From Escherichia coli (GTDB lineage Bacteria > Pseudomonadota > Gammaproteobacteria > Enterobacterales > Enterobacteriaceae): 64,000 nucleotides of DNA. Made by a program: the position numbers and the translations under genes. Position 1 is the stretch's first letter, and the number at the start of each line of letters is the position of its first letter. Below are positions 26,509 through 44,929 of this stretch, piece by piece. The notes under the pieces are model-generated. The model saw only the letters and a program-made list of their open reading frames with translations. It searched no databases and was not told the DNA's origin. The stretch lies in NCBI RefSeq assembly GCF_024223415.1, contig NZ_CP100500.1. One strand, 5' to 3'.

Positions 26509-26532
26509 GTAAAAAAGCCGGATTGCTCCGGC
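26509..26532 (-). terminator. Rho-independent terminator after the PerC-like gene
   Basis: Minus-strand hairpin GCCGGAGCAATCCGGC followed by a T-run. Confidence 0.5.
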
Positions 26533-26539
26533 TGTGTGC

Positions 26540-26812: not shown

Positions 26813-26822
26813 CGTCACCCCC

Positions 26823-27233
26823 TCAGAACGGAATATCATCACCGTAAGGGTCATCGCCTCCCGCTGGTGGCTGATTACCCTGTGTGCCTGTGGTTTTGCG
26901 TCTGTTCCCGCCAGGACGTGCCGCACGGGCACTGATTACGCTGTCTGCGATGACCTGCCAGCCCTGCCGCGTTTCGCCGTTCTGGCCTGTCCACTGGCTT
27001 ACCTGCATGTTACCCGCCACGCTCACCAGTTCGCCTTTGTGGTGTCTGGCCAGTGCGTCGGCCTGTCTGCCAAACGCCAGGACGGATAACCACATCGTCG
27101 CCGTTCCGTCATCTGCCTGGCTGCATGGCAGGGGAACCGCCATACTCGCCATCGCCATTTGTGTCCCTTTGCTGGTCTGTTTTGTCTGCGGGTCGTCCAC
27201 CAGCCGCCCGTAAGCCGCTATCTGTGCTGTCAT
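26823..27233 (-). CDS. Single-stranded DNA-binding protein (SSB)
   Basis: 136-aa ORF with OB-fold-like N-terminus, Gly/Pro-rich linker and the canonical acidic SSB tail ...GDDIPF. Confidence 0.8.
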   Translation of the reverse strand: MTAQIAAYGRLVDDPQTKQTSKGTQMAMASMAVPLPCSQADDGTATMWLSVLAFGRQADALARHHKGELVSVAGNMQVSQWTGQNGETRQGWQVIADSVISARAARPGGNRRKTTGTQGNQPPAGGDDPYGDDIPF

Positions 27234-27487
27234 GCTGTCTGCTCTCCGGTTTTAACATTGATGGTTGTCACCTGTTCCGCTCCGGCAATCTCCCGCTCTG
27301 TCAGCGTGGCAAAGTTTGCCGCCGTCGTTGTCATGAATGCGCTTATCAGTTCGGGATGTGCTTTCGCGTATCCTTCCCCCGTGTTGCGGTCGATGATTTT
27401 TATCGCCACCCTCAGCCAGTGCTCTGTAAGGTCAATGGCGCGGTTATGTGATTTCTTCTGATTGTTAAATTTTTCTGATGTGTGCAT
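27230..27487 (-). CDS. Hypothetical protein (85 aa) upstream of ssb
   Basis: ORF overlapping the ssb start by 4 nt; no recognisable domain. Confidence 0.45.
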   Translation of the reverse strand: MHTSEKFNNQKKSHNRAIDLTEHWLRVAIKIIDRNTGEGYAKAHPELISAFMTTTAANFATLTEREIAGAEQVTTINVKTGEQTA

Positions 27488-27529
27488 TTTTATTTTTACC
27501 CCCTCGTTTAAAAAGTTTTGAGTTGTGGT

Positions 27530-27770
27530 GCACCTCCTCTACCTCTCTACACAATCATCTTTCAGGTCAGTAATGGCGCGGCTTTCAGCGGGGTAGAGGG
27601 CTTTTTTGGCCCTCTACCCGCCATCTACCACCCCCTCACAAATGCCCTGAATTATGGTAGAGGGTGTAGAGGGCTTTTAAGTACCTTCTACCTGCCATCC
27701 ACCCAATCTATCCACATGAAATATATGTAATTATTTTCTTAAGGTAGAAGGGGTAGAGGGCTTTTGTCTA
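27530..27770. repeat. Iteron array; candidate replication origin of the island
   Basis: At least six copies or variants of GGTAGAGGG(C)TTTT and its complement CCCTCTACC in about 240 bp of non-coding DNA directly 3' of the primase gene. Confidence 0.6.
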
Positions 27771-27773
27771 AAA

Positions 27774-29522
27774 CTATAAAAACGCGTCGCAGTCGTCTGT
27801 TGTTGTCACGTTGGTTTGCGTAAACCCTTTAATCCTGCGCGTTATATATTCATGACCGTAAACTTTCGCCGCTGGCTTCATGGCCTTGCTGAACTCAGCC
27901 ACGTTCAGCGGTTTGCTCCTGCCTGCATACGCCATAAACGCCAGATAGACGCGGTAAAGGCTGTTTCTGGTCGTGTACTTCACTGAATCGCCACCGCCGC
28001 CCATCATCAGGCCACGTGCTTCCTCCAGAAAATTCAGGAACTGGCAAAACTCAATAACCGGATCCGTCTGTTGCTTTATTGCCAGAGCTTCATCACCGTC
28101 TCGCTGTTCAATGAGTAAAGCCCGTGCCTTTTCAGGGTCGGCAAAGTTCGCCAGCAAGCGGCGGATAATGACAGGGATTTCAGCCGCGATCTTTTCCGGT
28201 AGCTCCCTGTCTTTTTCTGCCTCGCTTACGATGTTATCGAACCGGAATATCACCCGACGACGTGACACGCCTCCTGCCCGTTCGGTGAATATCATCGGGT
28301 TATTATTGGTTGCCAGCACAACCGCCCTGATTACCGCCGTGAATCGCTTTTCATATTTCGGGTTGATTTCCACGGGGTCGCCGCCCGTGATTTTCTTGAT
28401 GCCCGTTCCTTCGCCTGTATATTTCGGCTGGTCTGCCAGGACAATAAGCCTACTCCCGACAACCTGCGCACGCCCACCAGCATCATCAAGCGATGTCATC
28501 TCAGCGCTTACCGTGTTCTGTTTCCCTGCCAGAAGGCTGGCTATGTGTGTGAATGTACTTTTACCGCTCCCGCCGTCTCCGGTGGCCTCAATAAACATCT
28601 GCCAGTCGTACCGGTTCGCCATAATCATGTACAGCGCGGCACATATACGCATCATCTTGCGCGGGTCTTTTCCGGCAGCGTGATCAAGCCATTTATGAAA
28701 GTTTGGCGCGTTGTCGCGGATATTCTCACCTGGTACTGGCGGCGTGTACTCAATGCCGTTGTGTGTGGTGATCCAGTTCTCCGGCGTGTGCGGGGAAAAT
28801 TCCCCCGTTTTCAGGTCAAGCGCACCATTGGCGAACGGCAGCAAATCGCCGGACGGCTCGCCCATTGGTTCGGCAATAACTTTTAACGCTTCCACGGCGT
28901 TACTGATTACGCGCTTGCTGAAAGTGGCCCTGTGCTCTGAATAGATCGCCACCATTTCGCGGCTCAGTTCCATTGTGCTGACCGGACACCATACCCCGCC
29001 GCGCCATACGTGAACGATTTCACTTTCCAGATGCACACAAACGCCATCAAATCGACCAGCAAGCATCTGTGCGCGCTCACTGTCTGCCATTTGTGCCAGT
29101 TGCGTATTTTTCTGCTCCGGCATGGTAAGCCCTGCGGCAATATTTTCACGCTCAGCATTCAGATAGCGCCGCCAGTTTTCACACTTCTGACCGTGCATTC
29201 CTTCAGAGTAAAAATTCGCATCCTGAATATCTGCCGCCGCCAGCTTCTGACCAATCTTTTTGGTCTCCACTAAATCCAGTTCTCCGGCCTGGTACAGCCT
29301 TACGCGTTTTTTTCCATCCGGAACAATTTTCAGCGCATCAAGTTCAGCAAGCTGATTTGGCCCAAGCCACACAGGCGGCACATTATCGCCGGATGCGGGA
29401 CCGTCCTTCTCCTGCCACTGTTGTGCATGCGACCAGGCATCACTACCCGCAAAGATAATTACCTCTGTGTCTTTGTGTTTTATTCCGCGTGGCTGTTTTT
29501 TTACGTTCGGTGCCAGTTTCAT
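27774..29522 (-). CDS. Phage/plasmid primase-helicase (P4 alpha family; D5_N plus P-loop NTPase)
   Basis: 582-aa ORF; Walker A GDGGSGKST; architecture and size typical of satellite or PICI Pri-Rep proteins. Confidence 0.85.
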   Translation of the reverse strand: MKLAPNVKKQPRGIKHKDTEVIIFAGSDAWSHAQQWQEKDGPASGDNVPPVWLGPNQLAELDALKIVPDGKKRVRLYQAGELDLVETKKIGQKLAAADIQDANFYSEGMHGQKCENWRRYLNAERENIAAGLTMPEQKNTQLAQMADSERAQMLAGRFDGVCVHLESEIVHVWRGGVWCPVSTMELSREMVAIYSEHRATFSKRVISNAVEALKVIAEPMGEPSGDLLPFANGALDLKTGEFSPHTPENWITTHNGIEYTPPVPGENIRDNAPNFHKWLDHAAGKDPRKMMRICAALYMIMANRYDWQMFIEATGDGGSGKSTFTHIASLLAGKQNTVSAEMTSLDDAGGRAQVVGSRLIVLADQPKYTGEGTGIKKITGGDPVEINPKYEKRFTAVIRAVVLATNNNPMIFTERAGGVSRRRVIFRFDNIVSEAEKDRELPEKIAAEIPVIIRRLLANFADPEKARALLIEQRDGDEALAIKQQTDPVIEFCQFLNFLEEARGLMMGGGGDSVKYTTRNSLYRVYLAFMAYAGRSKPLNVAEFSKAMKPAAKVYGHEYITRRIKGFTQTNVTTTDDCDAFL

Positions 29523-29818
29523 TTTTTACCCCTGAATACGTTAAGCATCTTTTTTATTTCCTGAATATTGGCGCGTGCTTTCTCCCTGCTGGTTGGTTTA
29601 CTGCGGGGCGCTGCCTGTACCAGAGAAAAATCACGCCGGAACTGATAAACAGGCATCACGCAATCATATTCGTAGCCTTCACGGCGGTAAGTGATGCGCC
29701 GTTCCTCCACGCCTTTAATCGTTACCGTGCCGCCGTACTGGTCGCGGTAAATATCGCCGTTCATAAATTCAGGCCGAGCGGGGCCGCTGGCATTAACGCC
29801 AGTATTTTTCATTCCCAT
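29519..29818 (-). CDS. Hypothetical protein (99 aa), translationally coupled to primase
   Basis: Stop overlaps the primase start by 4 nt; basic protein of unknown function. Confidence 0.5.
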   Translation of the reverse strand: MGMKNTGVNASGPARPEFMNGDIYRDQYGGTVTIKGVEERRITYRREGYEYDCVMPVYQFRRDFSLVQAAPRSKPTSREKARANIQEIKKMLNVFRGKK

Positions 29819-29822
29819 ATAA

Positions 29823-30065
29823 TTAAATTCCGTTTGTGTGGTGTTTTAATTCGTCAATTTTTTCTAATGCTTTGTTTATCTTGCTGGTGGAAATATCCAG
29901 CAATTCAGAAATAGCAAATATAAGTCTTGCCGTTGATTCATCTCTTTCGTTGTTTGACAGCAATTGAAACCACACGTTTGTAATTTCAATTGCCGAATTA
30001 TTATAGGTTATTGCACTGTTCATGTATTCCGACACCTCTGCAAGCGAAAGTTTATTATTCTCCAT
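29823..30065 (-). CDS. Hypothetical protein (80 aa), AT-rich accessory gene
   Basis: Locally AT-rich ORF within the minus-strand operon. Confidence 0.4.
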   Translation of the reverse strand: MENNKLSLAEVSEYMNSAITYNNSAIEITNVWFQLLSNNERDESTARLIFAISELLDISTSKINKALEKIDELKHHTNGI

Positions 30066-30246
30066 AACGTTCTACCCTCTCATCAATTAACCACAGTGCA
30101 ACACTTCCTGACAGTCTTGCCAGAAGGCCAGCTAATGCGGATATATCATCATCATTTAATTTATTAGGGTACGCTTCAAGAAGTCTGCAAATAATTTCGG
30201 TTTGGTGGGCGCGTTCAGCGGCTTCGTGTAATGTAATTTCCTTCAT
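30055..30246 (-). CDS. Hypothetical protein (63 aa)
   Basis: ORF overlapping its neighbours by a few nt (operon). Confidence 0.4.
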   Translation of the reverse strand: MKEITLHEAAERAHQTEIICRLLEAYPNKLNDDDISALAGLLARLSGSVALWLIDERVERYGE

Positions 30247-30431
30247 TAATGCACCTCTTTTAATTCATACACTGCTGAAATAATGACTTGTGATAAGCCA
30301 TATTCTGATGATTCGCTTCTCACCGCAGCAATAGCCGTCTGAACATTAACAGCCTTCACATTCTGAGCGATACCAATTGTGTGGCCTAGTGGGTTAACAG
30401 CTCGGGCAAATACACGGAAGGTTTTAAGCAT
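30246..30431 (-). CDS. Hypothetical protein (61 aa)
   Basis: ORF overlapping its neighbours (operon). Confidence 0.4.
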   Translation of the reverse strand: MLKTFRVFARAVNPLGHTIGIAQNVKAVNVQTAIAAVRSESSEYGLSQVIISAVYELKEVH

Positions 30432-30789
30432 GGCGCACCCCCTGAATAACCTGATATCCGCAACTGGTCAGCAATTCGATAAATTCCGGCAGAGTGCCAA
30501 AACAGCAATCAGTGCGTAGCTGTTCGCAGGATACCTCAACGCCGTTTTCGTAATGGCTCACTATGCGCCCGGTAAAATGCGGATCATCATCGTGATGGCA
30601 CGTTGACGGTTTCATCAGCCGCGCGCGTTCCGCCAGTTCCAGCAATGCTTCAACGCTTCCGGCAATTGCACCATCCGGCAGGTGATAATTACTTACTACG
30701 CGTCCATTCTCTACATTGACCAGTAGCTGTCCGGTAAATTTCTCACGAAACTGAACGCGGTTAAGATCGGTAAGTGACAGGTTAATCAT
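30424..30789 (-). CDS. Hypothetical Cys/His-containing protein (about 122 aa)
   Basis: ORF track 30424..30831; ATG at 30789 overlaps the upstream gene stop (ATGATTAA); contains CHHDDDPH...C..CC, a possible metal site. Confidence 0.45.
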   Translation of the reverse strand: MINLSLTDLNRVQFREKFTGQLLVNVENGRVVSNYHLPDGAIAGSVEALLELAERARLMKPSTCHHDDDPHFTGRIVSHYENGVEVSCEQLRTDCCFGTLPEFIELLTSCGYQVIQGVRHA

Positions 30790-30979
30790 GGCACACCTCC
30801 TGACGAATACGGGCGGCGAATACAGCGACACAACCGGACGGGCAACGGTTACGCGCTTCGCGTTCTGTCCAGGCGGTCACGTGGATAATTTGAGATTCTC
30901 CGGCACTCAGTGCCAGAAAACGCCACACAAAGGCGGTTTGTGTGTGCGCAAGGCGTGGGGTATGCTGTGTTCCAGCCAT
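30782..30979 (-). CDS. Small protein resembling P4 Icd-like / Ash-family (host cell-division inhibitor-like)
   Basis: 65-aa ORF MAGTQHTPRLAHTQTAFVWRFLALSAGESQIIHVTAWTEREARNRC...; SD GAGGT 7 nt upstream; first gene of the leftward operon; family assignment tentative. Confidence 0.4.
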   Translation of the reverse strand: MAGTQHTPRLAHTQTAFVWRFLALSAGESQIIHVTAWTEREARNRCPSGCVAVFAARIRQEVCHD

Positions 30980-31069
30980 AATCGTTACCTCAATTAATGG
31001 TTTGGTTAGAAGCCCGTTGGTGTTCATAGCGCCAGCGGGCTTTGTCTTTTCATCGATTACCTCAATAAA

Positions 31070-31151
31070 GGTGTCAGCCACTATACTAGTAACAGGTGTC
31101 AGCCACGTCAATAGTGTTTTTCCATTTTCTTGTGTGTATACTGTCAGCCAC
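31070..31151. promoter_or_regulatory. Three direct repeats of (G)GTGTCAGCCAC in the divergent promoter region (candidate operators)
   Basis: Copies at about 31070-31081, 31095-31106 and 31141-31151, between the leftward icd-like operon and the rightward RHH gene; a TATACT -10-like hexamer abuts copy 3. Confidence 0.5.
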
Positions 31152-31172
31152 CTAATAACAAGGAAATCAGAT

Positions 31173-31352
31173 ATGGCAACGAAAGCAGTTAATGGAAAAT
31201 CCAAAAAACTTGAGGCACGAGTCCCCCATGCAATAGCTGACGCTTTAGAAAATTTAAAGGAAGAAGGCGAAAGCACTGGGCAATTTATCGTTTCGGCACT
31301 TGAAGGCGAGATCAAACGCCGCCAGCGCCGGAAGGCCAAAGAATCAGAATAA
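31173..31352 (+). CDS. Small RHH/Arc-like DNA-binding protein; candidate island repressor
   Basis: 59-aa ORF MATKAVNGKSKKLEARVPHAIADALENLKEEGESTGQFIVSALEGEIKRRQ...; SD AAGGA; transcribed divergently from the replication operon. Confidence 0.55.
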   Translation: MATKAVNGKSKKLEARVPHAIADALENLKEEGESTGQFIVSALEGEIKRRQRRKAKESE

Positions 31353-31400
31353 TCACTATCAGCGCCGTGGTGTGAGGTACTGCGGCGCATTGTTTTAAAG

Positions 31401-31601
31401 GTGATAATTATGAATAACCAAGAACTACAAAATAAAGCATTATCAATTATCATGCGCCAGCGTGAGAAAACCCGCAGGGAAATAAATAAGGCATTAACCC
31501 GCACTGAAAATCTTAAAGTTCCTGATAAGTTCGCCCTTGATCCTTTTGTCGAGAAATACCCTCGGCGCTTAAAAGCAAACAAAAACCGCCCACCTGGCTG
31601 A
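31401..31601 (+). CDS. Hypothetical protein (66 aa) downstream of the RHH gene
   Basis: Short ORF on the same strand as the RHH gene, before a plus-strand terminator. Confidence 0.3.
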   Translation: MIIMNNQELQNKALSIIMRQREKTRREINKALTRTENLKVPDKFALDPFVEKYPRRLKANKNRPPG

Positions 31602-31758
31602 CAATCCACCAGCAAGCCAGGACACTGATCACATTGGCCACCGTGACAGGTGGCCTTTTCTTTGCCCGTTATCCGGCAATTGTGGCGCTTCGCCACACGG
31701 TTGATATAATCCCACTGCTCATATTCATTTTTTGCGCAGTAGGTTAATTGTTCAGAAA

Positions 31759-31787
31759 GGCGGCTCCTTATCGGGGCCGCTTTTTTT
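31759..31787 (+). terminator. Rho-independent terminator ending the rightward RHH transcription unit
   Basis: Hairpin GGCGGCTCC-TTATC-GGGGCCGC followed by TTTTTTT. Confidence 0.45.
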
Positions 31788-31928
31788 ATGTCTGAAAAAC
31801 CGCGATTTTGTTGTTTTTCAGTTTCACAAGGCCGAACGAAGCCCCGCCCCTGTTCGGGCGTATATCCAGTCTTCATGGTTAAATCTCTGTATTAGTGGAT
31901 GGGTGGCGGCTGTGTGCCGCCAGTCTTT

Positions 31929-32117
31929 TTAGTGAACTGCCTCGCAGCTTTCCTTCCATGCCAGAACTTCGGATAAAGACCAGCCAACGGAACGACCGCC
32001 CAGCTTACGCCGTGATGGGAATTGTCCGGCCTTTTCCAGGCGGTAGCGGCATGAGCGGCTAAGCCCTGTTAGCTTTTCGCATTCTTTTTCACGTATAAAC
32101 CGATCAGTGCTTAACAC
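31929..32117 (-). CDS. alpA: AlpA-family phage regulatory protein (excisionase/activator-like)
   Basis: 62-aa ORF ...KLTGLSRSCRYRLEKAGQFPSRRKLGGRSVGWSLSEVLAWKES, the AlpA HTH signature; adjacent to int. Confidence 0.8.
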   Translation of the reverse strand: MLSTDRFIREKECEKLTGLSRSCRYRLEKAGQFPSRRKLGGRSVGWSLSEVLAWKESCEAVH

Positions 32118-32409
32118 TATTGCCCCCTTTCGTTTCTTAAAGAGTTATTTCGTGTTCTATTGCGTTGGTATGTGTCTGATTGTGTCAGGGTGATTCAGAG
32201 TTGGCAAATGTTGGTGGCGGGTATTTTACAGAAACGGGGTTATTTTAATAAAAAACATTTTAATTCAGTATTATGCAAAGGCATAAAATCTCGTTTTATG
32301 CCTTTTTTCTCACTATTTAAAGCGTTATTCGCTAATGTATAAAAAACCAGTTGAGCATTAAAAATCAGCAACTTATAAATCTGTATACTTTTTGGCCTCT
32401 TGTTCGTGG

Positions 32410-32443
32410 TTGTTTCACGTTGTTGCGTATTGTTTCACGTTGT
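32410..32443. repeat. Two direct repeats TTGTTTCACGTTGT between int and alpA
   Basis: Identical 14-mers at about 32410-32423 and 32430-32443 in the int-alpA intergenic region. Confidence 0.4.
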
Positions 32444-32491
32444 ATCTGTGCACTTATCCAGTATGCGCATACTGAAAAAACACGAAAAAAA

Positions 32492-33742
32492 TTATTTTCT
32501 TCTGGTTACTGGTAGCGTGGTTACGTTTTCATGTGCTCCCGCCAGTATCTCCAACCGCTCCACCCACATATCCAGCGCATTGCGTTTCGCATCCAGATAA
32601 CGGGAATGATTATAAACTCGCTGCATTCCTGGCATCTGGTGGCCTGTAAGCTGCTCCACGACGTGAGGATCCACGCCTAAATCGTTCAGCATCGTTGTAA
32701 AGGTGCGCCGGATGTCATGCAGTGACCAGTGAGGGTGTTTAAGCCTCCTGTGCGCTAATCTTCCATACTGCGATACGCTGGCCTCCTGTTTCACTTCCCC
32801 CAGCAATAAGCCCGTGTGCCTGTTCTGCTCCACCAGCTGCGTGACGAACGGCAGTATCGCTTCCGGTATGGGCCGGAATATGGCTACCTTCGTTTTGCTG
32901 TGCTCCTTCGGAACGGTCCATAGCATTTCGGTAAAATCCCACTCCCCGATCTCCGATAGCCTCAGTTCTACTGTCCTGGCTCCGAAGACAATCAGGAGGC
33001 GGATTAGTGCGACGTAGTAAGGGGAAAATATTTTTTTGTCCAGTGCCTGCAATAATTCGCCAAGTTCTTTGTTACTTAAGACACGCTGACTTATATCCGG
33101 TTTTTTCCCAACGTCAGCAACACTCATATCATCAAGAACGTTGCTGATTGCATAGCGCCGCTTCCGGCAGAACTTAAGCGCCTGTTTGCATGTCTGTAGC
33201 AGGAATCCGGCGGAAACAGGGGCTTGCTTTGCCACCCGATCAAAACAGGCCAGCCAGTGCCGTAGCTCGCATTTATCCAGCGGCATAGCACCAATCTGCT
33301 GTATTACGTGATTATTAAGTCGCCTTTTCAGGGCGATATAATCCACGCGGTTTTCCTTTACGTAATACTCAAGCCAGTAGGTAAGCGCATCGCCAACCGT
33401 TACAGGCTTTAACGCTTCCTGTACGGTGTAATTCATCTCATGACGTGGATTTTTCCCCTCAGCCAGCCATGCGCGGCACTGTGCGGCTTTTTCCCTGGCT
33501 GCTTTCAGGCTCAGATCAGGATAATTTCCCAGCTTAATCCGTTCCGGTCGTGCTCCCCTTCCCGTTCCGGCCCTGTAGGTGAAATACCAGGTTAAAAGGC
33601 CGCTGGTTGAATGCCTGACGGTCAGGTTTCCACCGTCATTAAGAAAGACTGTTTTTTGGGCGGGTGTGCCGTTGATTTTCCTTAGCTGTGTATCGCTCAG
33701 TTTGTTAAGTGCTCTGCGCATAATTTTGATTCCGGTCATCAC
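32492..33742 (-). CDS. int: Tyrosine recombinase/integrase (P4-like, DUF4102 N-terminus)
   Basis: 416-aa ORF; N-terminus ...LNDGGNLTVRHSTSG...WYFTYR; C-terminal catalytic region HDIRRTFTT...VYNHSRY; lies at the island edge next to attR. Confidence 0.9.
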   Translation of the reverse strand: MMTGIKIMRRALNKLSDTQLRKINGTPAQKTVFLNDGGNLTVRHSTSGLLTWYFTYRAGTGRGARPERIKLGNYPDLSLKAAREKAAQCRAWLAEGKNPRHEMNYTVQEALKPVTVGDALTYWLEYYVKENRVDYIALKRRLNNHVIQQIGAMPLDKCELRHWLACFDRVAKQAPVSAGFLLQTCKQALKFCRKRRYAISNVLDDMSVADVGKKPDISQRVLSNKELGELLQALDKKIFSPYYVALIRLLIVFGARTVELRLSEIGEWDFTEMLWTVPKEHSKTKVAIFRPIPEAILPFVTQLVEQNRHTGLLLGEVKQEASVSQYGRLAHRRLKHPHWSLHDIRRTFTTMLNDLGVDPHVVEQLTGHQMPGMQRVYNHSRYLDAKRNALDMWVERLEILAGAHENVTTLPVTRRK

Positions 33743-33767
33743 AATTAACTACACCATTAACTACACC
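33743..33767. repeat. Tandem AATTAACTACACC / ATTAACTACACC repeats, right arm (candidate arm-type sites)
   Basis: Identical to 22323-22347; located immediately upstream of the int start. Confidence 0.5.
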
Positions 33768-33889
33768 GATCGTTGCACAAAGGGCTACAACGTGAAACAA
33801 GCTGGAACAAGAAAAATCACAAATTTGTTTATAATCAAAAACATAATGCACAACCTGAAACATTATGAAACGGCAAAAAACACTAATTG

Positions 33890-33902
33890 ATAAAAGGGAT
33901 AT
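33890..33902. repeat. attR core: right copy of the 13-bp direct repeat (ATAAAAGGGATAT)
   Basis: 12 of 13 match to attL; a TAA stop and AAG replace the native ATG start of allE. Confidence 0.6.
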
Positions 33903-34679
33903 TTAAATAACGTCACCGGTTACCGCGATGATTTACTGGCTAACCGTGCGATTGTGAAACACGGTAATTTCGCACTGTTAACACCAGACGGTCTGGTAAA
34001 AAATATTATTCCGGGCTTTGAAAATTGTGACGCGACAATCCTCTCCACGCCAAAGCTGGGTGCCTCTTTTGTTGATTATCTGGTCACACTGCATCAAAAC
34101 GGTGGCAACCAACAGGGCTTCGGTGGCGAAGGCATTGAAACGTTCCTGTATGTGATCTCTGGAAATATCACTGCCAAAGCCGAAGGCAAAACATTTGCCT
34201 TAAGCGAAGGTGGCTATCTTTATTGCCCGCCAGGCTCCTTAATGACGTTTGTTAACGCCCAGGCCGAAGACAGCCAAATCTTTTTATATAAGCGCCGCTA
34301 TGTTCCGGTAGAAGGCCATGCACCGTGGCTGGTTTCTGGCAATGCCAGCGAACTGGAACGCATTCACTATGAAGGTATGGATGATGTGATCCTGCTGGAT
34401 TTTCTGCCCAAAGAGTTAGGTTTTGATATGAACATGCATATCCTCTCTTTTGCACCAGGTGCCAGCCATGGTTATATCGAAACACACGTTCAGGAACACG
34501 GTGCCTATATTCTTTCCGGTCAGGGGGTTTATAACCTCGACAATAACTGGATCCCGGTGAAAAAAGGCGATTACATCTTTATGGGCGCTTATTCTTTACA
34601 GGCTGGTTATGGCGTAGGGCGTGGTGAAGCGTTCAGCTATATTTACTCGAAAGATTGCAACCGCGACGTAGAGATTTAA
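33897..34679 (+). pseudogene. allE: Ureidoglycine aminohydrolase gene truncated at its start codon by island insertion
   Basis: Reading frame GYLNNVTGYRDDLLANRAIVKHGNFALL... resumes at 33897 with no ATG; an in-frame TAA lies 2 codons upstream; first in-frame start is GTG at 33954. Confidence 0.8.
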
Positions 34680-34721
34680 GTCATACCACTCGCCTGATTA
34701 TTTTTAGCTATGTTGGATTTT

Positions 34722-34748
34722 GCCACGGTTTATACCGTGGCTTTTTTT
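34722..34748 (+). terminator. Rho-independent terminator after allE
   Basis: Hairpin GCCACGG-TTTATA-CCGTGGC followed by TTTTTTT; a REP-like palindrome follows. Confidence 0.55.
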
Positions 34749-34906
34749 GTAACATTGCCTGATGCGCTTCGCTTATCAGGCCTACATGATCTCTGCAATA
34801 TATAGAATTTGCGCGATTTTCAGGAAGGATATAGTGCTCATGCAGCATCCGGCATGAGCACTGCGCTCTTATACGAAATAAATCGCATCCGCTTTAAAGG
34901 TAAGGG

Positions 34907-36052
34907 TCAGTTTTTAATTCCCTGACCTATTTTAATGGCGCAGGCAATATTTCGCGCGCTGTTGAAGAGATTGGTTTCACCGCTGGCGAGCACTTCGGCT
35001 AAAGGTGCCAGACGAGGCAAAATGCTGAATACCGCGTCAATGCCGTACTGGTGCACCACTTCCACGCCATCACCCAATACGCCAGCAATCCCAATCACCG
35101 GTACATTAAACTGCTTCGCCACCGACGCAACGCCCAGCGGCGCTTTACCGCCTGCCGTTTGCGAGTCAATGCGCCCTTCCCCGGTGATCACCAGTGCTGC
35201 CCCCTGCACCGCCTGCTCCAGGTTGACCGCACGCAGTACAATCTCAATACCCGGTTTAATATCCGCATTGAGAAATACCGCCGCCGCAATACCCATACCG
35301 CCCGCAGCGCCGCCGCCCGCCATCTGACAGACATTAATTTCAGTTTGCTGTTGTAAAACACGGGCGTAATTTTGCAGCCCCTGTTCCAGCTCTTCGACCA
35401 TCTCCGGCGTTGCCCCTTTTTGCGGGCCAAACACCGCCGCCGCGCCGCGTGCCCCTACCAGCGGGTTATCAACGTCACATGCTACTTCAATATGGCAGTT
35501 CGCCAGACGCGGATCGCATTCATCCATCTCAATGCTTGCCACGCGCGCTAAATTGCCGCCGTTAGCCACCAGCACCTGACCGTCGGCATCAAGGAAACGC
35601 ACACCGAGCGCCTGCGCCATGCCCATACCGCCGTCGACCGTCGCACTGCCGCCAATGCCGAGAATAATATGGCGAATGCCGTTATCCAGCGCATGACGAA
35701 TTAACTCCCCCGTACCAAAACTGGAGGCCAGCAACGGATTACGCTTTTCAGGCGCGACCAGCATCAGGCCACTTGCTGCCGCCATCTCAATCACCGCCGT
35801 TTTCCCGTCGCCGGTAAGGCCATAAAAAGCATTCACTTTTTCGCCCATCGGCCCGCAGACTTCAAGCGTCACGATGTTGCCGCCCGTCGCGGCGACCATC
35901 GCATCCACCGTCCCTTCGCCGCCATCCGCTATCGGCAAACAGATATAGTTCGCATCGGGAAAGAGGGTCGAAAACCCGGCTTTAATTGCCTGACAACATT
36001 TTTCTGCACTTAAGCTCTCTTTAAAAGAGTCTGGCGCAATGACAATCTTCAT
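34907..36052 (-). CDS. glxK: Glycerate 3-kinase
   Basis: 381-aa product from [20 protein letters not shown]... Confidence 0.9.
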
Positions 36053-36073
36053 TATCAATCCTTTTTCAACAAA

Positions 36074-37375
36074 TTATTCGATGCGTTCCCACGGAATAAG
36101 GTTATCCATAAGAACAGCCAGTAAAATCCCGACCAATAAGCCGTTACTGAGCAGAGGACGAAGCGTTAATGGAAGGTCTTGCAGATACACAGGCGGTAAT
36201 GCCATTAAAAATATGCCGACAAATAACGGCAATGCGAGTCGATAAATATTGCGAGCGGTAAACGTTATTTGCTGGCTAAACACCAGCGCGGAAAAGAGTA
36301 AAGGCAGATAAGAAACCAGCATGACCGCACTACTCACGGGTAAAGGGATACTGCAAAACAGTCGCGTGAGTGCAGGAACCAGCGCCACCAGCAGGCAAAT
36401 AACGCTGCCATAAATAAACGAACGCCGCGTGTAATCGCCAGTCTGGGTTAATAAACCAATGGATGAAACAAACGGTGAAAATGGAATTACCGCCAGCGGT
36501 ACGGTTATCAGCGTCATAAATCCGGTCGCCACAAAGCTGCGACGATAACGCGTATTCCCCGCGCCCTGCTGCGGATAAAAAACATCCGTGCCCCGAATCG
36601 CACCGTAGGTATTGCTGATATTCACCAGACCTGTAATCACCGCCGTCAGAATAATCCCCGGAGACAAAGCACCGCCACTGCCGAGCGGGAACCACTGCCA
36701 GTGCAACTCACCGGAGAGCGAATGCGAAGAAGGAAAGCAAAAGTACCACAACAACCAGCCGGTTATGGTGCCGACCAGCAGGCCATAACGGGCAAAACGT
36801 TGCGGCAGGAAAATAATCATCGCCAGTACCAGGCACATCACCGCCACCGAGAGCGCGAACGGCGGTAACTGAATTTTAAAATTCGGGTCGGCTATGCCAA
36901 ACGGCAGCCCGAGCATACCTTTGAAAAAGATAGTGGTCAGCTGCGCGCCCAGCATCAACATAAACAAGACCATCACCGACGGCGTAAATAACCGCGCCAG
37001 GCGATGACCTAATCCGCTAAAACCAATCAACATCGTCAGCACGCCGGAGAGCGCAATCCCCACTGCCAGGCTGGTGGCGATATCGTTGATCGGTGTCCCG
37101 CGCGATGCTTCGCCAAGGGTGATAGTTAGGATGGTTCCCCACCACAGGCCCCCCGGCCCTTCCATAATAGCGCGACGATGGCCACAGAACGCCTGAGCGA
37201 AGCAGGCCAGTGCGGTAGCAAGAAAAGCATATTGCGTGAGCGTAAGCAGGCTACTTTGCGGCAACTGAAAAGCAGAAAGTAGCGTAGGAGGAACCACAAC
37301 CGTGTTGCAAAAAATAAAGAAAAACCACTGAAATCCTGATAACAGGCTTTCGCGGCTGACTGCAAAATTGAACAT
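36074..37375 (-). CDS. ybbY: Nucleobase:cation symporter-like permease YbbY
   Basis: About 433-aa polytopic membrane ORF within the allantoin cluster. Confidence 0.8.
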   Translation of the reverse strand: MFNFAVSRESLLSGFQWFFFIFCNTVVVPPTLLSAFQLPQSSLLTLTQYAFLATALACFAQAFCGHRRAIMEGPGGLWWGTILTITLGEASRGTPINDIATSLAVGIALSGVLTMLIGFSGLGHRLARLFTPSVMVLFMLMLGAQLTTIFFKGMLGLPFGIADPNFKIQLPPFALSVAVMCLVLAMIIFLPQRFARYGLLVGTITGWLLWYFCFPSSHSLSGELHWQWFPLGSGGALSPGIILTAVITGLVNISNTYGAIRGTDVFYPQQGAGNTRYRRSFVATGFMTLITVPLAVIPFSPFVSSIGLLTQTGDYTRRSFIYGSVICLLVALVPALTRLFCSIPLPVSSAVMLVSYLPLLFSALVFSQQITFTARNIYRLALPLFVGIFLMALPPVYLQDLPLTLRPLLSNGLLVGILLAVLMDNLIPWERIE

Positions 37376-37431
37376 AAACACACCTTAACCGGAGAATGCC
37401 CGCCGCAAGGACGGGCATTGCAGGGGCCAGA

Positions 37432-38793
37432 TTACTGCTGATGTTTAAGGATAAATTGACCTTTCGGCGCAACAGGGAAGCCCAGTTCAATGTCGTAAAT
37501 CACATCACCACGTAAGATGGTTTTCGTGATACGCGCGCCAATGGTACGGCCAACATACGGGCTGACTTTGTGGCGATATTCCAGATCGTCATTGGTAAGA
37601 ACATAGCTGCTATTCGGCTGAATGAAGACGAAGTCGGCATCTTTTCCTGGGGCGATACGGCCTTTTTGCTGCAGACCGAAAATATCTGCTGCGTTAGTCG
37701 CCATTAATTTGCCGAACATTGGCAGAGACATTCCGCGTTTCTGTACCGCTTCATCGAACATCACGTCCATACAGTTTTGCAGACCGGCAATACCGCCCCA
37801 TGCTTCCATGATGTTGCCGGCTTTCATTTCCGGAGGGCATGGTGAGTGGTCGGAAACCAGGCAGTCGATTTCACCGTTAAACAGTTTTTCCCACATGCCT
37901 TTCTGGTTTTCCAGATCGCGGATCGGCGGTGAACACTTCGCCAGAGTGCCGATTTCTTCGAACTGATCGGTATCCAGTACAAAGTAATGCGGGCAGGATT
38001 CACAAGTAACATCCTGACCTTCCTGACGTGCACGAGTCACTTCTTCAACGCCTTCCGGGCTGCTGATATGGCAAACGTGCAGACGGCAACCGGCAACTTT
38101 CGCCAGATACAGCACGCGGCGAATCGCTTCCACTTCGGTAAATACCGGACGCGAAGCCACATAGTCATGGGCAGTTACGCGACCTTCACGTTTCGCTTCT
38201 TCGCCCAGTGCGTCACAGATCAGCGCGTTTTCGCAGTGCACCAGCACCGGCTGCCCCAGTTCGCCCAGCTTCTGCGCACCTTTGAAGAACTGCCAGTCGT
38301 TTACATCACGGAAGTCGTTGTCGATACCGCGATCGCCACAGGTCGCAACGAAGCATTTGAAGCCGACAACGCCCACTTCATCCAGCTCATGCAGACGGTC
38401 GATGTTGTAAGACACCAGGCCACCGAGTTGTGCCGCATCGATAGTCAGCTTGCCTTTAGCGGCATCGAACTTCAGTTCAATTGAAGCGCGGTCAACCGTT
38501 GCAGGCAGCTGGTTGAGCGGCATTTCGATCATGGTGGTGATACCACCTTTTGCCGCTGCGCGAGTACCGGTTTCATAACCTTCCCAGTGGCTACGACCCG
38601 GTTCAGAAATATGGGTGTGCGCATCAACCATGCCCGGCGAAACCACCAGACCAGACGCATCCATAACTTCTTTTGCATCGCCCAGATCCTGACCGATAGC
38701 AGCAATTTTGCCGCCTTTAACGGCGATATCTACAACGCGAGCTTCGTTTTCTAAAATAACGGTGCCGTTTTTAATGATTAAATCAAAAGACAT
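37432..38793 (-). CDS. allB: Allantoinase
   Basis: 453-aa [37 protein letters not shown]...; cyclic amidohydrolase with metal-binding HxH. Confidence 0.95.
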
Positions 38794-38852
38794 AACAAAC
38801 TCCTTGTAAAATACAGATTGGTTTTTAACTCAATGTTCAATATCGGGATTAA

Positions 38853-40307
38853 TTAACCTATGGTTTTTTGCTCTCCTGTTTTTTCTGCTGTTGTACGTTT
38901 CTTTAATAAGGCGTAGGCCGCAAAGGCGACGATGACGCCGACAAACCATGAAACACGCGATAACGGTTCCATAAAGGGAATAAACTTACCGCCAAGAGAT
39001 AAAATAACGGCCACCAGAGTTACTGAAAACGCGGTGAGGTTAAAACCGTTATCGTAATATTTATAATCGCCAGGTGCGGTGTACAGTTCATCAAGATTAA
39101 TTTGCCCACGCATCACCACAAAATAATGCGCCATCATGACACCAATTACCGGACCCAGCATTCCGCCGATGATATCGAGGAACAGATAAATACTGTCCTG
39201 ATTTTCCATTAATTTCCACGGGCAGATCAGCAGGCTGATAATACTGGCAATCAGTACGCCGTTTTTATAGGTCAGTTTTGTCGGTGCAATGGCAGCAATC
39301 TAATAACCGGCCGGAATAATATTACCGGTGGCGTTAGTGGAAATGGTCGTCATCAGAATAACCAGTACCGCAAAGAACGAGGCAAACAGGCTGTCCCAAC
39401 GCTGAACAATATCCAGCACGTTCCAGGTGTCAGCGCCGTAGTGAATACTGGCTCCGGCAATAATACATACCCCAGCGACCGCAAACAGAATATAGGCCAC
39501 AACTAAACCCAGCGTTTGCCCCAGCGCTTGCTCACGAAACGAGTGGGCGTTTTGCGTAAAGTCGGATGCGCTCACCGCCGGTGCCGCCCAGACCGCAACT
39601 ACCGCATTAATCACTACCAGGAACAAGAATCCACTGTTTTCTGCTTTCTGAATACCGCTCGGAATGTAGTCAAAGATTGGACCGAGCCCGACCAGCGAAA
39701 TCGCCCAAATCGCCATACCGCCGAAAACGATATAGATGCACGGGTTAAGAATAGCAGTGAATTTATTTAAAACTTTGCCACCGCCAAAACCTATACCAAC
39801 GTTGACCAGCCAGAAGAGTAAGAAAGTAATTAAGCCCGGTAGAGAAAGGCCTAACAGAGTGAAATCACCACCGAGAGTCAAAAATCCCGGCCAGATTTTG
39901 CCAATCAGAATCAAGCAGGCCAGTGACCCCGCGTAACATTGCAGGCCAAACCACATAATGGCAGCAATACCGCCTCTTAATAATCCGGGAAACAGTGCGC
40001 CACGTACGCCGTAAGAAGCACGCAGGATCATGGCAAACGGTACGCCGTATTTACTGCCCGCAGCGCCGTTTAATACCATTACCGCGGCAATGAAAAAGGC
40101 GCTGAGGATAATTGCCAGCATAATACTAAAGGTAGACAAGCCGAGAATAAAAAAGCCGCCGACCATCACATAATTGGGAACGTTATGAACCGAACCCATC
40201 CATAAGGTAAAATAGTTAAATGTTTTCCAGGTCCGCTGGCTTTGCGTTTTCGGCAATAGATCTTCGCTATAGCCGCGTTGCTGGAATAGTTTTCTCTGAT
40301 GTTCCAT
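38853..40307 (-). pseudogene. ybbW: Allantoin permease gene with an in-frame TAG stop (39300-39302)
   Basis: ORFs 39300..40307 (335 aa) and 38853..39209 share one frame; the only interruption is one TAG; 335 + 1 + 30 + 118 codons equals the 484 expected for YbbW/AllW. Confidence 0.75.
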
Positions 40308-40475
40308 AAATCCCTCTTAATTTCACGTATCGAATAACGTTGTTTTAATCTAGCTATGAGGAACAAATAAAATAAAAATATTATTTTTAATACTGAAGCA
40401 ACATCTTTGGCTGCTTTCTTTTTTAATATTGCTGGCCGATTCATTTTCTGATATCGGCCATTTTTATTGCGGGTA

Positions 40476-41354
40476 TCAGGCCAGTTTATGGTTAGCCATT
40501 AATTCCAGCGCCTGCACTAACGCAGAGTGATCCAACTGGCTGCCACCGTTTGCCGCACAGGTATTAAATAGCTCCTGGCAGGTCGCAGTGTTTGGCAGGT
40601 TCAGCGCCAGTGCTTTCGCACTTTGCAGTGCCTGGTTGAGATCTTTCTGGTGCAGCGCAATTTTGAAACCTGGATTAAAGGTGCGTTTAATCATGCGCTC
40701 ACCGTGAACTTCCAGAATACGTGAGGAAGCAAAGCCGCCCATCAGCGCCTGGCGCACGCGTACCGGGTCTGCACCGGCTTTTGAAGCAAACAGCAGAGCT
40801 TCAGAGACCGCTTCAATATTGAGCGCCACAATAATCTGATTTGCCACTTTGCAGGTTTGTCCGTCGCCGTTACCGCCCACAAGGGTGATATTTTTACCGA
40901 GCAGTTCAAATAGCGGTTTAACACGTTCAAATACCGCTTCGTCACCGCCAACCATAATTGACAACGTACCTTCACGCGCGCCGATTTCGCCGCCGGAGAC
41001 TGGCGCATCGAGATAATCACCGCCCAGTTCATTCACCTGACGAGCGAAACGTTTAGTTTCAATCGGGGAAATGGAGCTCATATCAACAATGGTTTTGCCC
41101 TTCAGCGAGGCTTTGGTACAACCATTTTCACCGAACAGAACTTCTTCAACCTGTGGTGTATCCGGCACCATAATAAAAATGATGTCCGATGCTTCCGTTA
41201 CCTGGTGCGCAGTTTCAACACTGACGGCACCCAGTGACAGTAATTCATCAGCAACCGGACCAATGGTTGTGACATGCAGTTGATGACCGGCACGCGCCAG
41301 ATTAATGGCCATCGGTGTACCCATAATGCCTAAGCCAATAAATCCCAGTTTCAT
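40476..41354 (-). CDS. glxR: Tartronate semialdehyde reductase
   Basis: 292-aa ORF MKLGFIGLGIMGTPMAINL...; NAD-binding Rossmann N-terminus. Confidence 0.9.
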   Translation of the reverse strand: MKLGFIGLGIMGTPMAINLARAGHQLHVTTIGPVADELLSLGAVSVETAHQVTEASDIIFIMVPDTPQVEEVLFGENGCTKASLKGKTIVDMSSISPIETKRFARQVNELGGDYLDAPVSGGEIGAREGTLSIMVGGDEAVFERVKPLFELLGKNITLVGGNGDGQTCKVANQIIVALNIEAVSEALLFASKAGADPVRVRQALMGGFASSRILEVHGERMIKRTFNPGFKIALHQKDLNQALQSAKALALNLPNTATCQELFNTCAANGGSQLDHSALVQALELMANHKLA

Positions 41355-41453
41355 AATTAACCTCTTTTAAATTTTGCTTTTCCTGGATTCAGACAACACG
41401 ATCCCCTGCCAACTTAGCGGCCTAAAAAAGCATTGCCTGAATAGCGTTACGTT

Positions 41454-42230
41454 TTAACGGTACGGATCCATCCAGCGTAAACCGGCTTCCGTGGTGGTTT
41501 GGGGTTTATATTCACAACCAACCCAACCGTTGTAGTCAGAATTTTCGATTACCTTAAAGAGATAATCATAATTAATTTCTCCGGTCCCCGGTTCGCCGCG
41601 ATGCGGATTATCGGCAATTTGCAGGTGACCAATTTTATCGGCCCACTGAGTCATGGTGTTGGTTAATTCACCTTCCATCCGCTGCATGTGATAAATGTCA
41701 TACTGAATTTTCAAATTGCAGCAACCAACATCATCAATCAATTTCAGCGCCTGCCGAGTTCCGGTGAGATGGAAACCAGGAATATCAAAATGGTTAATAG
41801 GTTCAATCAGTAATAAAATATCTTCTTTCATCAGCATATTCGCGGCATAACGCAGGTTTTCTACAAGCGTTGCGTGAATCTGTTCACTGCTGAAACCAGC
41901 CGGCGTTTTACCGACCAGACAGTTAATTTTTTTATTACCCAGCGCACGGGCATAACGAATCGCTGCTGCTACGCCATCCCGAAACTCTTCTTCACGACCA
42001 GGAATACAGGCAATACCGCGCTCCCCCGCCGCCCAGTCACCCGCCGGTAAATTGTGCAGCGTATGTTCGAGTTTATTACTCGCCAGCACCTGTTTTAATT
42101 CTTCAATGTCGTAGTCATAAGGAAACATAAATTCAACGCCGCGAAAACCACACTGCGCAGCTTTCTCAAAACGGGCGAGAAAATCATATTCACCAAATAA
42201 CATCGATAAATTAGCAGAGAAACGTAACAT
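41454..42230 (-). CDS. hyi: Hydroxypyruvate isomerase
   Basis: 258-aa TIM-barrel ORF between gcl and glxR. Confidence 0.9.
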   Translation of the reverse strand: MLRFSANLSMLFGEYDFLARFEKAAQCGFRGVEFMFPYDYDIEELKQVLASNKLEHTLHNLPAGDWAAGERGIACIPGREEEFRDGVAAAIRYARALGNKKINCLVGKTPAGFSSEQIHATLVENLRYAANMLMKEDILLLIEPINHFDIPGFHLTGTRQALKLIDDVGCCNLKIQYDIYHMQRMEGELTNTMTQWADKIGHLQIADNPHRGEPGTGEINYDYLFKVIENSDYNGWVGCEYKPQTTTEAGLRWMDPYR

Positions 42231-42242
42231 TATTTATCTCCC

Positions 42243-44024
42243 TTATTCATAGTGCATGAAGCAGGTTTCAGTCGGTGCATCCGCTGCGTTATCGGCGATA
42301 TCTTCAAATTCCATGACGTTATCCAGTTCGCTGCCCATCGAAATATTGGTCACACGCTCGAGAATAACTTCCACGACTACCGGTACCCGATATTGCGCCA
42401 TTAAGGCTTTCGCCTGTTCAAAGGCCGGTGCAATATCTTCCGGTTTGAAGACGCGAATCGCTTTACAACCTAAACCTTCCGCTACTTTTACGTGGTCGAC
42501 GCCGTAACCGTTCACTTCGCTGGAGTTGATATTCTCGAAAGCGAGTTGCACGCAGTAGTCCATGTCAAAGGCGCGTTGTGACTGACGAATCAGGCCGAGA
42601 TAGGCGTTATTCACCAGCACATGGATGTACGGAATGTTGAACTGCGCGCCAACGGCTAACTCTTCAATCAGGAACTGGAAGTCGAAGTCACCGGAAATCG
42701 CCACCACATTGCGTTTCGGATCAGCGGCACAAACCCCTAGCGCCGCCGGAATCGTCCAGCCTAACGGACCAGCCTGACCACAGTTGATCCAGTGGCGGTC
42801 TTTAAAGACATGCAGCATTTGTGCCGCAGCGATTTGTGACAGACCGATGGTGGTAACATAACAAACATCGCGACCAAAGGCTTTGTTCATCTCTTCATAC
42901 ACGCGCTGCGGTTTCACCGGCACGTTGTCGAAGTGGGTTTTGCGCAGCAAAGTGCGTTTGCGCTGCTGGCAGTCGGCGACCCATTCTTTACGACACGGCA
43001 GACGACCCGCTTTTTGCATCTCCTGCGCCACTTCAACCAGCAGTGTCAGCGCCGCTTTAGCATCAGAGACAATGCCGAGATCCGGACACAGCACGCGGCC
43101 AATTTGCGTCGGCTCAATATCGATATGAACGATTTTGCGCCCTTCGGTGTATTTCTCTACCGAACCGGTATGACGGTTAGCAAAACGGTTACCGATACCA
43201 AACACCATGTCGGACGCCAGCAGCGTTGCGTTACCGTAACGATGCGCGGTTTGCAGACCGACCATCCCGGCCATCAGTTCATGATCGTCCGGGATACAGC
43301 CCCAGCCCATCAGTGTTGGGATCACCGGAACGCTGGTCAGTTCAGCAAACTGTTGTAACAGTGCAGCTGCGTCAGCATTGATTACCCCACCCCCGGCAAC
43401 AATCACCGGACGTTCGGCCTGGATTAACATTTCTACAGCTTTTTCGATCTGCATACGGCTGGCAGCAGGTTTGTAGACCGGCAGCGGTTCGTACATGTCA
43501 GGATCAAACTCGATTTCCGCAACCTGAACGTCGAACGGTAAATCCACCAGTACCGGACCCGGACGACCAGAACGCATCAGGTGAAATGCCTGTTGCAGCA
43601 CGCGAGGCACCAGCGCCGCTTCACGAACTGTAACCGCCATTTTGCTGACCGGTTTAGCGATTGCTTCAATATCTACGGCCTGAAAATCTTCTTTATGCAG
43701 ACGGGCGCGCGGTGCCTGGCCGGTAATGCACAGAATAGGAATGGAATCAGCAGAAGCGGAATAGAGCGCGGTGATCATGTCCGTGCCCGCAGGACCGGAA
43801 GTCCCCAGACATACGCCGATATTCCCTGCCGTTGCGCGGGTATAACCTTCCGCCATGTGCGAAGCACCTTCCACATGACGCGCCAGAATGTGACGAATAC
43901 CGCCGTGCTTACGCATCGCTGAGTAGAACGGATTGATTGCAGCTCCCGGAACGCCGAAGGCGGTGGTGATACCTTCTTTCTCCAGCACATACATTGCCGC
44001 GTCAACGGCTCTCATTTTTGCCAT
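42243..44024 (-). CDS. gcl: Glyoxylate carboligase
   Basis: 593-aa product from [34 protein letters not shown]...; ThDP enzyme. Confidence 0.95.
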
Positions 44025-44113: not shown

Positions 44114-44929
44114 CTATGGATGTGCTTTCAGTCCCAACGCCGTGCTGATATCGCGGGCGGTGTCTCTGACCAGCTCACCCTGACTGACAAAACGATCTTC
44201 TGTCAGTCTTGATGAAGGCCCGGAGATGGAGATAGCGGCAACAACACTACCGACATCATCGTAAATTGCTGAAGCTATGCAATTCAGACCTACAACATGC
44301 TCTTCTTTATCTACGGTATAGCCCAGTTCACGCGCTTGTTCCAGGTCCTTCAGCAAGGTGAGCATATCCACAAGCGTAGTTGGCGTAAACTGCTGCAAAC
44401 CGGTTTGCAGAATGATGCTCATCAACTCCTCTTCCGCCAGCGGATAAAGCAGCGCTTTGCCCGCACCGGAAGCATGCAGTGGCAGACGACTGCCCAGTGG
44501 CGCACACATCCTGACCATCGATTTACACTCTAACTGACCAATTAATACCGCTTCATTGCCGTTACGGATCGCGACATTGACCGTTTCGCCGGAAAGTAAC
44601 ATCAGGCGGCGCATAAACGGCCCGGCGACGGAGAGGACATCGCGGTTATGGATGTACGCTGCACCGACGTTAAAGACACCTAATCCTATATGCCACCAGC
44701 CTAACTGACTGTCCTGATAGACAAAATCCGCTGCCTGTAAAACCTTCAGCAAGCGAAAGGTCGTGGAGAGCGGCAAATCCAGATTGAGAGAAATATCGCT
44801 AACCGACGAACTTCCCCCACTTTTTTCCAAATATTGCAGAATCGCAATTCCCCGCTCTAACGCCTGTGCGCCCTTCTGTGCCACAGGCTCCGCCTGTCCT
44901 GGCCTGCCGCGCCGTCTAACTTCCGTCAT
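44114..44929 (-). CDS. allR: IclR-family repressor of the allantoin regulon
   Basis: 271-aa ORF with IclR-type HTH and effector domain. Confidence 0.9.

Follow-up and report, generated by a model that had tools for sequence, protein, structure and literature searches.

We analysed a window of 64,000 nucleotides of the Escherichia coli chromosome (RefSeq assembly GCF_024223415.1, contig NZ_CP100500.1), whose nearest complete genomes are NCTC10444, KV7 and NCTC9112, with more than 99.9% backbone identity. The window holds the 17 genes of the allantoin (ALL) cluster, from ybcF/allK at about 14955 to allS at 46645, with an 11.6-kb insertion between allC and allE. Two genes of this cluster are damaged: allW (ybbW), encoding the allantoin permease, is cut by a nonsense codon, and allE (ylbA), encoding ureidoglycine aminohydrolase, has lost its start codon at the border of an integrated phage satellite. 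We consider it rather probable that the lineage is losing the ALL cluster step by step, allantoin uptake first and the other genes later. The initial annotation of this DNA had already related the two lesions to a relaxed selection on the pathway and had placed them at 33897 to 40307, an interval which is right except that it leaves out the att site and the first base of the lost start codon. The features that bear on the lesions are the following.

19924 to 22230, plus strand: allD and allC, both intact, the first two genes of the allDCE operon (open reading frame comparison; operon structure from PMC10163214).
22237 to 22249: attL core, ATAAATGGGATAT, which keeps the ribosome-binding site and the ATG of allE (junction comparison).
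22250 to 33889: satellite of the phage-inducible chromosomal island (PICI) type, 11.6 kb (11.64 kb), between allC and allE (empty site in NCTC10444; domain scans).
33890 to 33902: attR core, ATAAAAGGGATAT (junction comparison).
33894 to 34679, plus strand: coding sequence of allE (ylbA) without start codon, separated from its ribosome-binding site and from the allD promoter (base comparison).
38853 to 39299, minus strand: untranslated 3' part of allW, codons 337-484, with about four predicted transmembrane segments (hydropathy scan, open reading frame list).
39300 to 40307, minus strand: 5' fragment of allW, 335 codons followed by the premature TAG at 39300-39302 (base comparison; the exact 335-aa product and its stop are found in other assemblies).

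The allW gene (38853-40307, minus strand) lies between glxR and allB, which is its syntenic position. One base only separates it from the intact 484-aa allele of NCTC10444 (WP_000401139.1): the change G>A at 39302 turns codon 336 of 484 from CAG to TAG (window 39300-39302), placing an amber codon at Gln336, so that the permease is indeed truncated by a nonsense codon as first proposed. On the coding strand this is a C>T transition, and the product of this NCS1-family permease would be deprived of roughly its last four transmembrane segments. Because a K-12 strain deleted for allW shows no measurable allantoin uptake (PMC10163214), Q336* has probably abolished the uptake of external allantoin in the window strain.

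Allele frequencies in complete genomes were obtained by megablast counts with 61-mers centred on each variant, a measure that undercounts alleles on divergent backgrounds: YlbF N119 and AllR L190 score zero there while they are present in a larger collection. By this count the Q336* TAG is missing from all 5,426 complete E. coli genomes. An exact-protein look-up of the 335-aa AllW product in the larger collection returned ten places, of which six (L022, L023 and L025-L028) were discarded, being contigs of 97-99% backgrounds that merely end at codon 335. Such unrelated contigs, which happen to end at that codon, are a trap of look-ups with truncated proteins when the carriers of nonsense alleles are counted. 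The same TAG, with the sequence continuing past the stop, is found in GCA_900482235.1 (L019), ERR3437659 (L020) and SRR7874689 (L021, four samples), and also in SRR19977217 (L024), GCA_044079975.1 (L036) and GCA_018050105.1 (L038). These amber-bearing copies differ mutually at a few other sites, so that more than one genotype carries the amber codon, which is a true, heritable allele.

The lesion in allE is of another kind. From 33894 to 34679 (plus strand) the gene is identical to an intact 261-aa allele except for a T>A change at 33895, which converts the ATG at 33894-33896 into AAG; the loss of the start codon at the island was correctly seen in the initial annotation. The homology of the window to the uninterrupted allC-allE junction stops at 22249 and restarts at 33890. 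In the relatives, this junction (...CAGAAATAAGGAGTCATAAATGGGATATTTAAAT...; uninterrupted sequence ATAAATGGGATATTTAAAT) holds the stop codon of allC, the ribosome-binding site and the ATG of allE. The attL and attR cores form a 13-bp direct repeat that overlaps the start of allE, with one mismatch, located to the left of a perfect 7-bp GGGATAT. At attL the retained ATG opens a stub open reading frame of 12 codons (22241-22279). On the attR side, two in-frame stops, TGA and TAA, directly precede the AAG, the AGGAG ribosome-binding site is missing, and neither a Shine-Dalgarno sequence nor a sigma-70 or other promoter-like site was found on the plus strand upstream of the cut gene. AllE would thus no longer be made.

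The simplest reading of these junctions is a strand exchange within the GGGATAT heptamer, catalysed by the tyrosine integrase of the satellite, between attP (...TTGATAAAA-GGGATAT-ATCTATAAC...) and attB (...GTCATAAAT-GGGATAT-TTAAATAAC...). The bases to the left of the heptamer at attR would then come from the element, and the "AT" of the allE ATG, the Shine-Dalgarno sequence and the allD promoter would stay at attL. Besides that of the window, the junctions read for satellites at allE were those of seven of the 12 complete-genome carriers (AR_0085, TUM1886, E300010, 2012C-4502, AST19, AST85 and one more) and of three draft contigs, L054, L055 and L057; ten of ten display ...GATAAAAGGGATATTTAAAT with AAG, and the integrases of the five junction carriers compared are 89-98% identical. 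Since the same AAG stands in all the junctions read, it is, on this comparison, an automatic product of integration. The two lesions had been described as independent. They do differ in mechanism and in time, but the AAG is a by-product of the insertion, not a mutation of its own. Precise excision would give allE back its ATG and its ribosome-binding site and rejoin it to the operon, so that the lesion would in principle be reversible.

Prophages and islands inserted in genes that are restored on their excision are described as "active lysogeny", the comK prophage of Listeria being an example. The island of the window resembles this situation, as its attL keeps ATAAATGGGATAT and excision would restore the gene. 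It differs in that no evidence ties its excision to allantoin use, and in that, in a host null for allW, a restored allE would not restore the use of external allantoin.

The other genes of the cluster were compared with those of NCTC10444, the nearest complete genome. The genes said to be intact in the initial annotation (allB, allC, allD, allA, gcl, hyi, glxR, glxK, allR and allS) are all full-length open reading frames, although AllR and GlxR each carry one amino-acid change compared to this nearest relative; ybbY, fdrA, ylbE and ylbF are likewise full length. The cluster contains three such changes:

15845 to 16660, minus strand: ylbF (allH) with T119N (16305) (open reading frame comparison).
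34907 to 44024, minus strand: gcl-hyi-glxR-allW-allB-ybbY-glxK operon, in which all the genes except allW are full length; GlxR carries L241Q (40633) (open reading frame comparison).
44114 to 44929, minus strand: allR with P190L (44361) (open reading frame comparison).

None of the three looks clearly inactivating. Position 241 of GlxR is Asn in GarR-type homologues, and P190 of AllR is not strictly conserved among IclR homologues. Most of the unrelated complete genomes inspected have an identical AllR (WP_000141275.1). The L190 form occurs in none of 5,318 complete genomes, but in at least 22 contigs of the larger collection; the several divergent backgrounds on which it is present there all have intact clusters. 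We therefore rejected GlxR L241Q, AllR P190L and YlbF T119N as private signs of decay, as each is found elsewhere with an intact cluster.

Taken alone, the allW and allE lesions constitute a weak evidence for a change of selection: one is a recurrent, integrase-directed and potentially reversible insertion, the other a single nucleotide polymorphism (SNP). The comparison with the closest amber carriers is more telling. L036 and L021 share Q336*, AllR P190L and GlxR L241Q with the window and form a sister type, the window type (L019, L024, L038 and L047) having the satellite at allE. In one and the same table allE is annotated with its full 261 aa in L036 and with 247 aa in the window-type L038; the absence of the island from the sister branch is read from this annotated product length. 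The two sub-branches differ by at most four changes in 18 kb, and the three changes that are extra in the sister type all fall in genes of the cluster: a 1-bp deletion at codon 83 of hyi, AllS A14T and AllS W212*. Four inactivating events (allW Q336*, the satellite at allE, the hyi frameshift and allS W212*) are thus distributed over two sub-branches of one shallow lineage. The amber, P190L and the island are all absent from outgroups with GlxR L241Q (L029-L032).

As the sister clone shares the amber while its allE is annotated at full length, the amber was probably acquired before the island arrived. The most economical history would have the satellite arrive in one branch, and hyi and allS be damaged in the other. 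Once uptake was gone, the rest of the cluster would no longer have been protected by selection; the satellite would have integrated at allE in the window branch, and a frameshift in hyi and a nonsense codon in allS would have appeared instead in the sister branch. The window strain is predicted to be unable to grow anaerobically on allantoin as sole nitrogen source; its glyoxylate branch (gcl, glxR and glxK), needed for the use of glyoxylate as well, is still intact.

The substitutions on the branch of the window, polarised with outgroups, go in the same direction. Within the cluster all four changes of this branch alter the protein (one nonsense, three missense) and none is synonymous; in the flanks it has one nonsense change (in the integrase of a prophage remnant), one missense and five synonymous changes. 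The contrast of 4:0 with 2:5 yields p = 0.045 in a one-sided Fisher test, and 0.07 when the clustered changes of intD are left out. The SNP density is similar inside and outside the cluster, which indicates that the cluster is not a mutational hot spot. The population genomics of the locus, proposed initially as a check, hence bears out the idea of relaxed selection in this lineage, through the additional hits in the sister clone, the presence of the amber in several assemblies and this borderline pattern of substitutions. Relaxed selection is supported by these data, with which a selection for loss is compatible as well.

Several observations weigh against a stepwise loss. The substitution tests rest on 4 to 11 events and their p values, 0.045 to 0.07, are borderline. 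The reading frame of allE shows no decay past its start codon, and gcl, glxR, glxK, allB, allC, allD and allA are untouched in the window. Among the 12 complete genomes with the satellite at allE, ten have no other annotated lesion in the cluster. AllR P190L, GlxR L241Q and YlbF N119 occur also in backgrounds with an intact cluster, and may be neutral. The amber-bearing assemblies may include re-sequencings or laboratory derivatives of one culture-collection strain, with the reservation that three genotypes differ mutually. Finally, excision of the satellite after the two branches had split would give the same picture as an amber acquired first.

Lesions of the same cluster accumulate in other E. 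coli. In UPEC132 (L007) and N50 (L011), which lack the satellite, the cluster combines an allB frameshift (4-bp insertion), allS W212* and GlxR L241Q. The two strains belong to an unrelated extraintestinal lineage, and their changes in allS and glxR are the same nucleotide changes as in the lineage of the window. We considered recombination with UPEC132 as the source of the shared GlxR L241Q and allS W212* and rejected it, having found no tract of identity around either site. A second nonsense allele of allW, W139* (TGG>TGA), arose independently of Q336* and is carried by AST19, which has the satellite. W139* is a common allele, counted in 16 of 5,275 complete genomes and in 512 index blocks, on at least four backbones differing by 0.5-2.7%, a distribution that points to recurrent mutation or to spread by recombination. 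Its codon lies at 6851-6853 of L014; further contigs with it are L052-L059, and its carriers include the O25 strains ATCC 43886 and F5505-C1. Like the window, the UPEC132/N50 and W139* lineages thus have multiple hits or fixed nonsense lesions in the ALL cluster; unlike it, they are affected in other genes or codons and on unrelated genomic backgrounds.

These parallels raise the question of whether the loss is adaptive, i.e. whether positive selection favours, in some niches, strains that have lost allantoin uptake or catabolism, for example because the loss avoids a wasteful induction or a reactive intermediate. The recurrence of allS W212* (TGG>TAG) in L036/L021 and in UPEC132/N50, that of allW W139* on its distinct backbones, the homoplasy of GlxR L241Q with no recombination tract around the site, and the fact that two of the five point substitutions in the cluster of the amber lineage are nonsense would fit this view. 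We nevertheless find it unlikely. In a very large collection of E. coli, recurrent transitions at Trp and Gln codons are expected, and all the changes are G:C>A:T transitions, a common class. Moreover, most E. coli keep the cluster intact, with the same AllR protein in most of the unrelated genomes inspected, and in K-12 a mutation of allB slows the recovery from nitrogen starvation (PMC7417836), which argues for a value of the pathway.

It seems rather less probable that the two lesions are a mere coincidence of unrelated events under an unchanged selection, the satellite having followed the specificity of its integrase and the amber being a recent mutation not yet purged. The insertion is site-specific and recurs on backgrounds with an intact cluster; another private nonsense codon, intD W86*, exists in 52 kb, and the SNP density of the cluster (4 in about 20 kb) equals that of the flanks. 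On the other hand, coincidence does not account well for the two more disruptive hits that the sister clone has received in the same cluster, for the association of an allW nonsense codon with the satellite at allE that arose independently in W139* lineages, nor for the lack of synonymous changes in the cluster.

That the lesions are functionally silent appears very improbable. It would require the translation of allE to begin further downstream, at the CTG at 33936 or the GTG at 33954, on transcripts reading through the island, and the amber of allW to be suppressed or read through. The automatic annotation lends some appearance to the former: the Prokaryotic Genome Annotation Pipeline (PGAP) describes the cut allE as an intact (S)-ureidoglycine aminohydrolase of 247 aa that starts at the CTG, a product found on 419 contigs. 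As to the latter, the amber replaces a Gln, which is the residue that a glnV-type suppressor tRNA inserts at amber codons. Natural suppressor tRNAs are however rare, and the relevant tRNA genes lie outside the 64-kb window. For allE, neither a Shine-Dalgarno sequence nor a sigma-70-like promoter precedes any of the candidate starts, the neighbouring integrase gene is transcribed away from allE, and the cut gene has decayed further in AST85 and L055. The PGAP call hides the loss of the true start, at L002 9514-10257 and likewise in other satellite carriers, and reconstructions built on this 247-aa AllE will wrongly score satellite-carrying strains as allantoin users. Lastly, a sequencing or assembly error at the allW stop, which the initial annotation had named as what could overturn its proposal, can be dismissed: it is a single base in a window with one probable assembly error (the A7 tract at 49055), but a substitution and not a homopolymer indel, and six further assemblies or read sets, produced by different projects, have the same base.

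Stepwise loss with uptake going first therefore remains the reading that we prefer, and its precedents lie in host-adapted enterobacteria. In Salmonella, allantoin-pathway pseudogenes are described in ST313 lineage II (allB, gcl, ybbW and others), Typhi, Paratyphi A and Gallinarum (PMC4372345). As in the window, several independent inactivating mutations, the ybbW permease included, hit the same cluster in shallow lineages, and were read as the loss of a gut nutrient pathway no longer needed (PMC4372345). The window differs by its host, E. coli, by one hit being the integration of a satellite, and by no link to host restriction or invasiveness being shown. Shigella has lost allD among the functions lost convergently from E. 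coli (PMC2617782). Here also allantoin degradation disappeared in an E. coli-derived lineage, but by a different gene and within a genome-wide reduction, whereas no evidence of a general reduction exists in the window genome. Multi-hit decay of the allantoin pathway is thus already well known in host-adapted Salmonella and in Shigella, and the window is a new instance of it; our literature search returned nothing specific on pseudogenes of the E. coli ALL cluster. The locus offers a dated, stepwise example of a nutrient pathway being dismantled, transporter first, in a commensal or pathogenic E. coli lineage, in which a site-specific mobile element can act as one of the dismantling agents.

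The order of events in the W139* lineages suggests a further relation between allW and the satellite. Of the 24 W139* contigs read, four have the satellite at allE, by at least two separate insertions. An island-free W139* relative, L052, is only 2-3 SNPs away from two satellite carriers, so that W139* too seems to precede the insertion. Each of the two allW-null alleles examined, Q336* and W139*, is thus found in island-free relatives too, which suggests that the nonsense change came first, and at least three independent insertions occurred on allW-null backgrounds. The satellite is present in 1 of 16 complete genomes with W139* compared to 11 of 5,410 others (p = 0.035, not corrected for phylogeny), and in the 4 of 24 contigs against a background of about 0.2%; this association is suggestive only. 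We propose tentatively, and with more doubt than for the stepwise loss itself, that selection normally acts against a satellite at the allE start, which would last mainly in hosts that have already lost allantoin uptake; the condition of a host pathway would then gate the attachment sites that a satellite can use in the long term. Should the association hold, it would offer a simple case in nature in which to study the influence of host selection on the integration sites that are used. Later decay is visible in two carriers. In AST85 a frameshift was added to the already cut allE. L055 (15532-17719) displays an older insertion on a W139* background, in which allE has decayed to a 145-aa open reading frame and the integrase is truncated to 357 aa; this element is probably immobilised.

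The main genes recognised in the satellite of the window are:

24691 to 26093, minus strand: major head protein (25038-26093) and head decoration protein (24691-25026) (domain scan).
27774 to 29522, minus strand: D5-type primase (domain scan).
31929 to 32117, minus strand: AlpA-type excisionase/regulator (Pfam PF05930 on the same gene in L019).
32492 to 33721, minus strand: tyrosine integrase of 409 aa with Arm-DNA-bind_3 and Phage_integrase domains (domain scan; exact match WP_112038187.1 / SRA14796.1).

The head protein is of the lambda E type and the decoration protein of the D type. The element further encodes a single-stranded DNA-binding protein (SSB), a PerC-like activator, a scaffold/protease-like fragment and a weak TerS-like open reading frame. 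No match to a large terminase, portal, tail or lysis protein was found among the satellite open reading frames scanned, and the capsid module contains none longer than 351 aa. A terminal tyrosine integrase followed by AlpA, a primase/replication module of its own, a size within about 10-15 kb, att repeats and an empty site in relatives are all present, a layout which, judged from gene content, is that of a classical Gram-negative PICI. We considered a capsid-forming PICI (cf-PICI), which encodes a complete capsid and packaging set, and rejected it, as the open reading frames scanned include no large terminase or portal. The order of the modules (integrase, alpA, primase, capsid module) is like that of both Gram-negative PICIs (EcCICFT073 type) and cf-PICIs (EcCIEDL933 type), as are the size of about 11.6 kb, the flanking att repeats and the site-specific integration into chromosomal genes; the absence of a large terminase and a portal separates it from the EcCIEDL933 type.

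At allE this satellite occurs in 12 of 5,426 complete genomes, on about eight backgrounds, whereas NCTC10444 and many other genomes have an uninterrupted allC-allE junction. Six attB sites in E. coli are reported for cf-PICIs (bioRxiv 10.1101/2022.09.08.507074). Our literature search, outside of which the table of these six sites fell, returned no paper naming the start codon of allE (ylbA) as an attB.

Two further nonsense or frameshift changes lie outside the cluster. The intD gene (358-1521), encoding a DLP12-type integrase adjoining a tRNA-Arg gene, carries W86* (TGG>TAG at 614), the second lineage-derived nonsense codon of the window; it is one of five close changes (136, 137, 614, 1332 and 1440), which together resemble a small recombination patch. 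The A7 tract at 49055, where NCTC10444 and all the other assemblies of the lineage have A8, shifts the frame of a YbbD_head-family open reading frame downstream of an Rhs core, and is probably an assembly error in the genome of the window.

Just inside both ends of the satellite, a direct repeat of 75 nt, 79% identical (22323-22397 and 33743-33817), starts in each copy with a tandem ATTAACTACACC ATTAACTACACC; these are plausibly arm-type binding sites of the integrase. The integrase-side arm (33850-33895, as far as ...TTGATAAAA; L003 3001-3046 and L004 3001-3046) recurs with 100% identity in some 96 other complete genomes, which have the element at another place, e.g. upstream of roxA in RM10466 or inside caiT, which it truncates, in strain 94-3024. 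The integrases of these elements are 89-97% identical to that of the window, which indicates several attB sites for one integrase clade.

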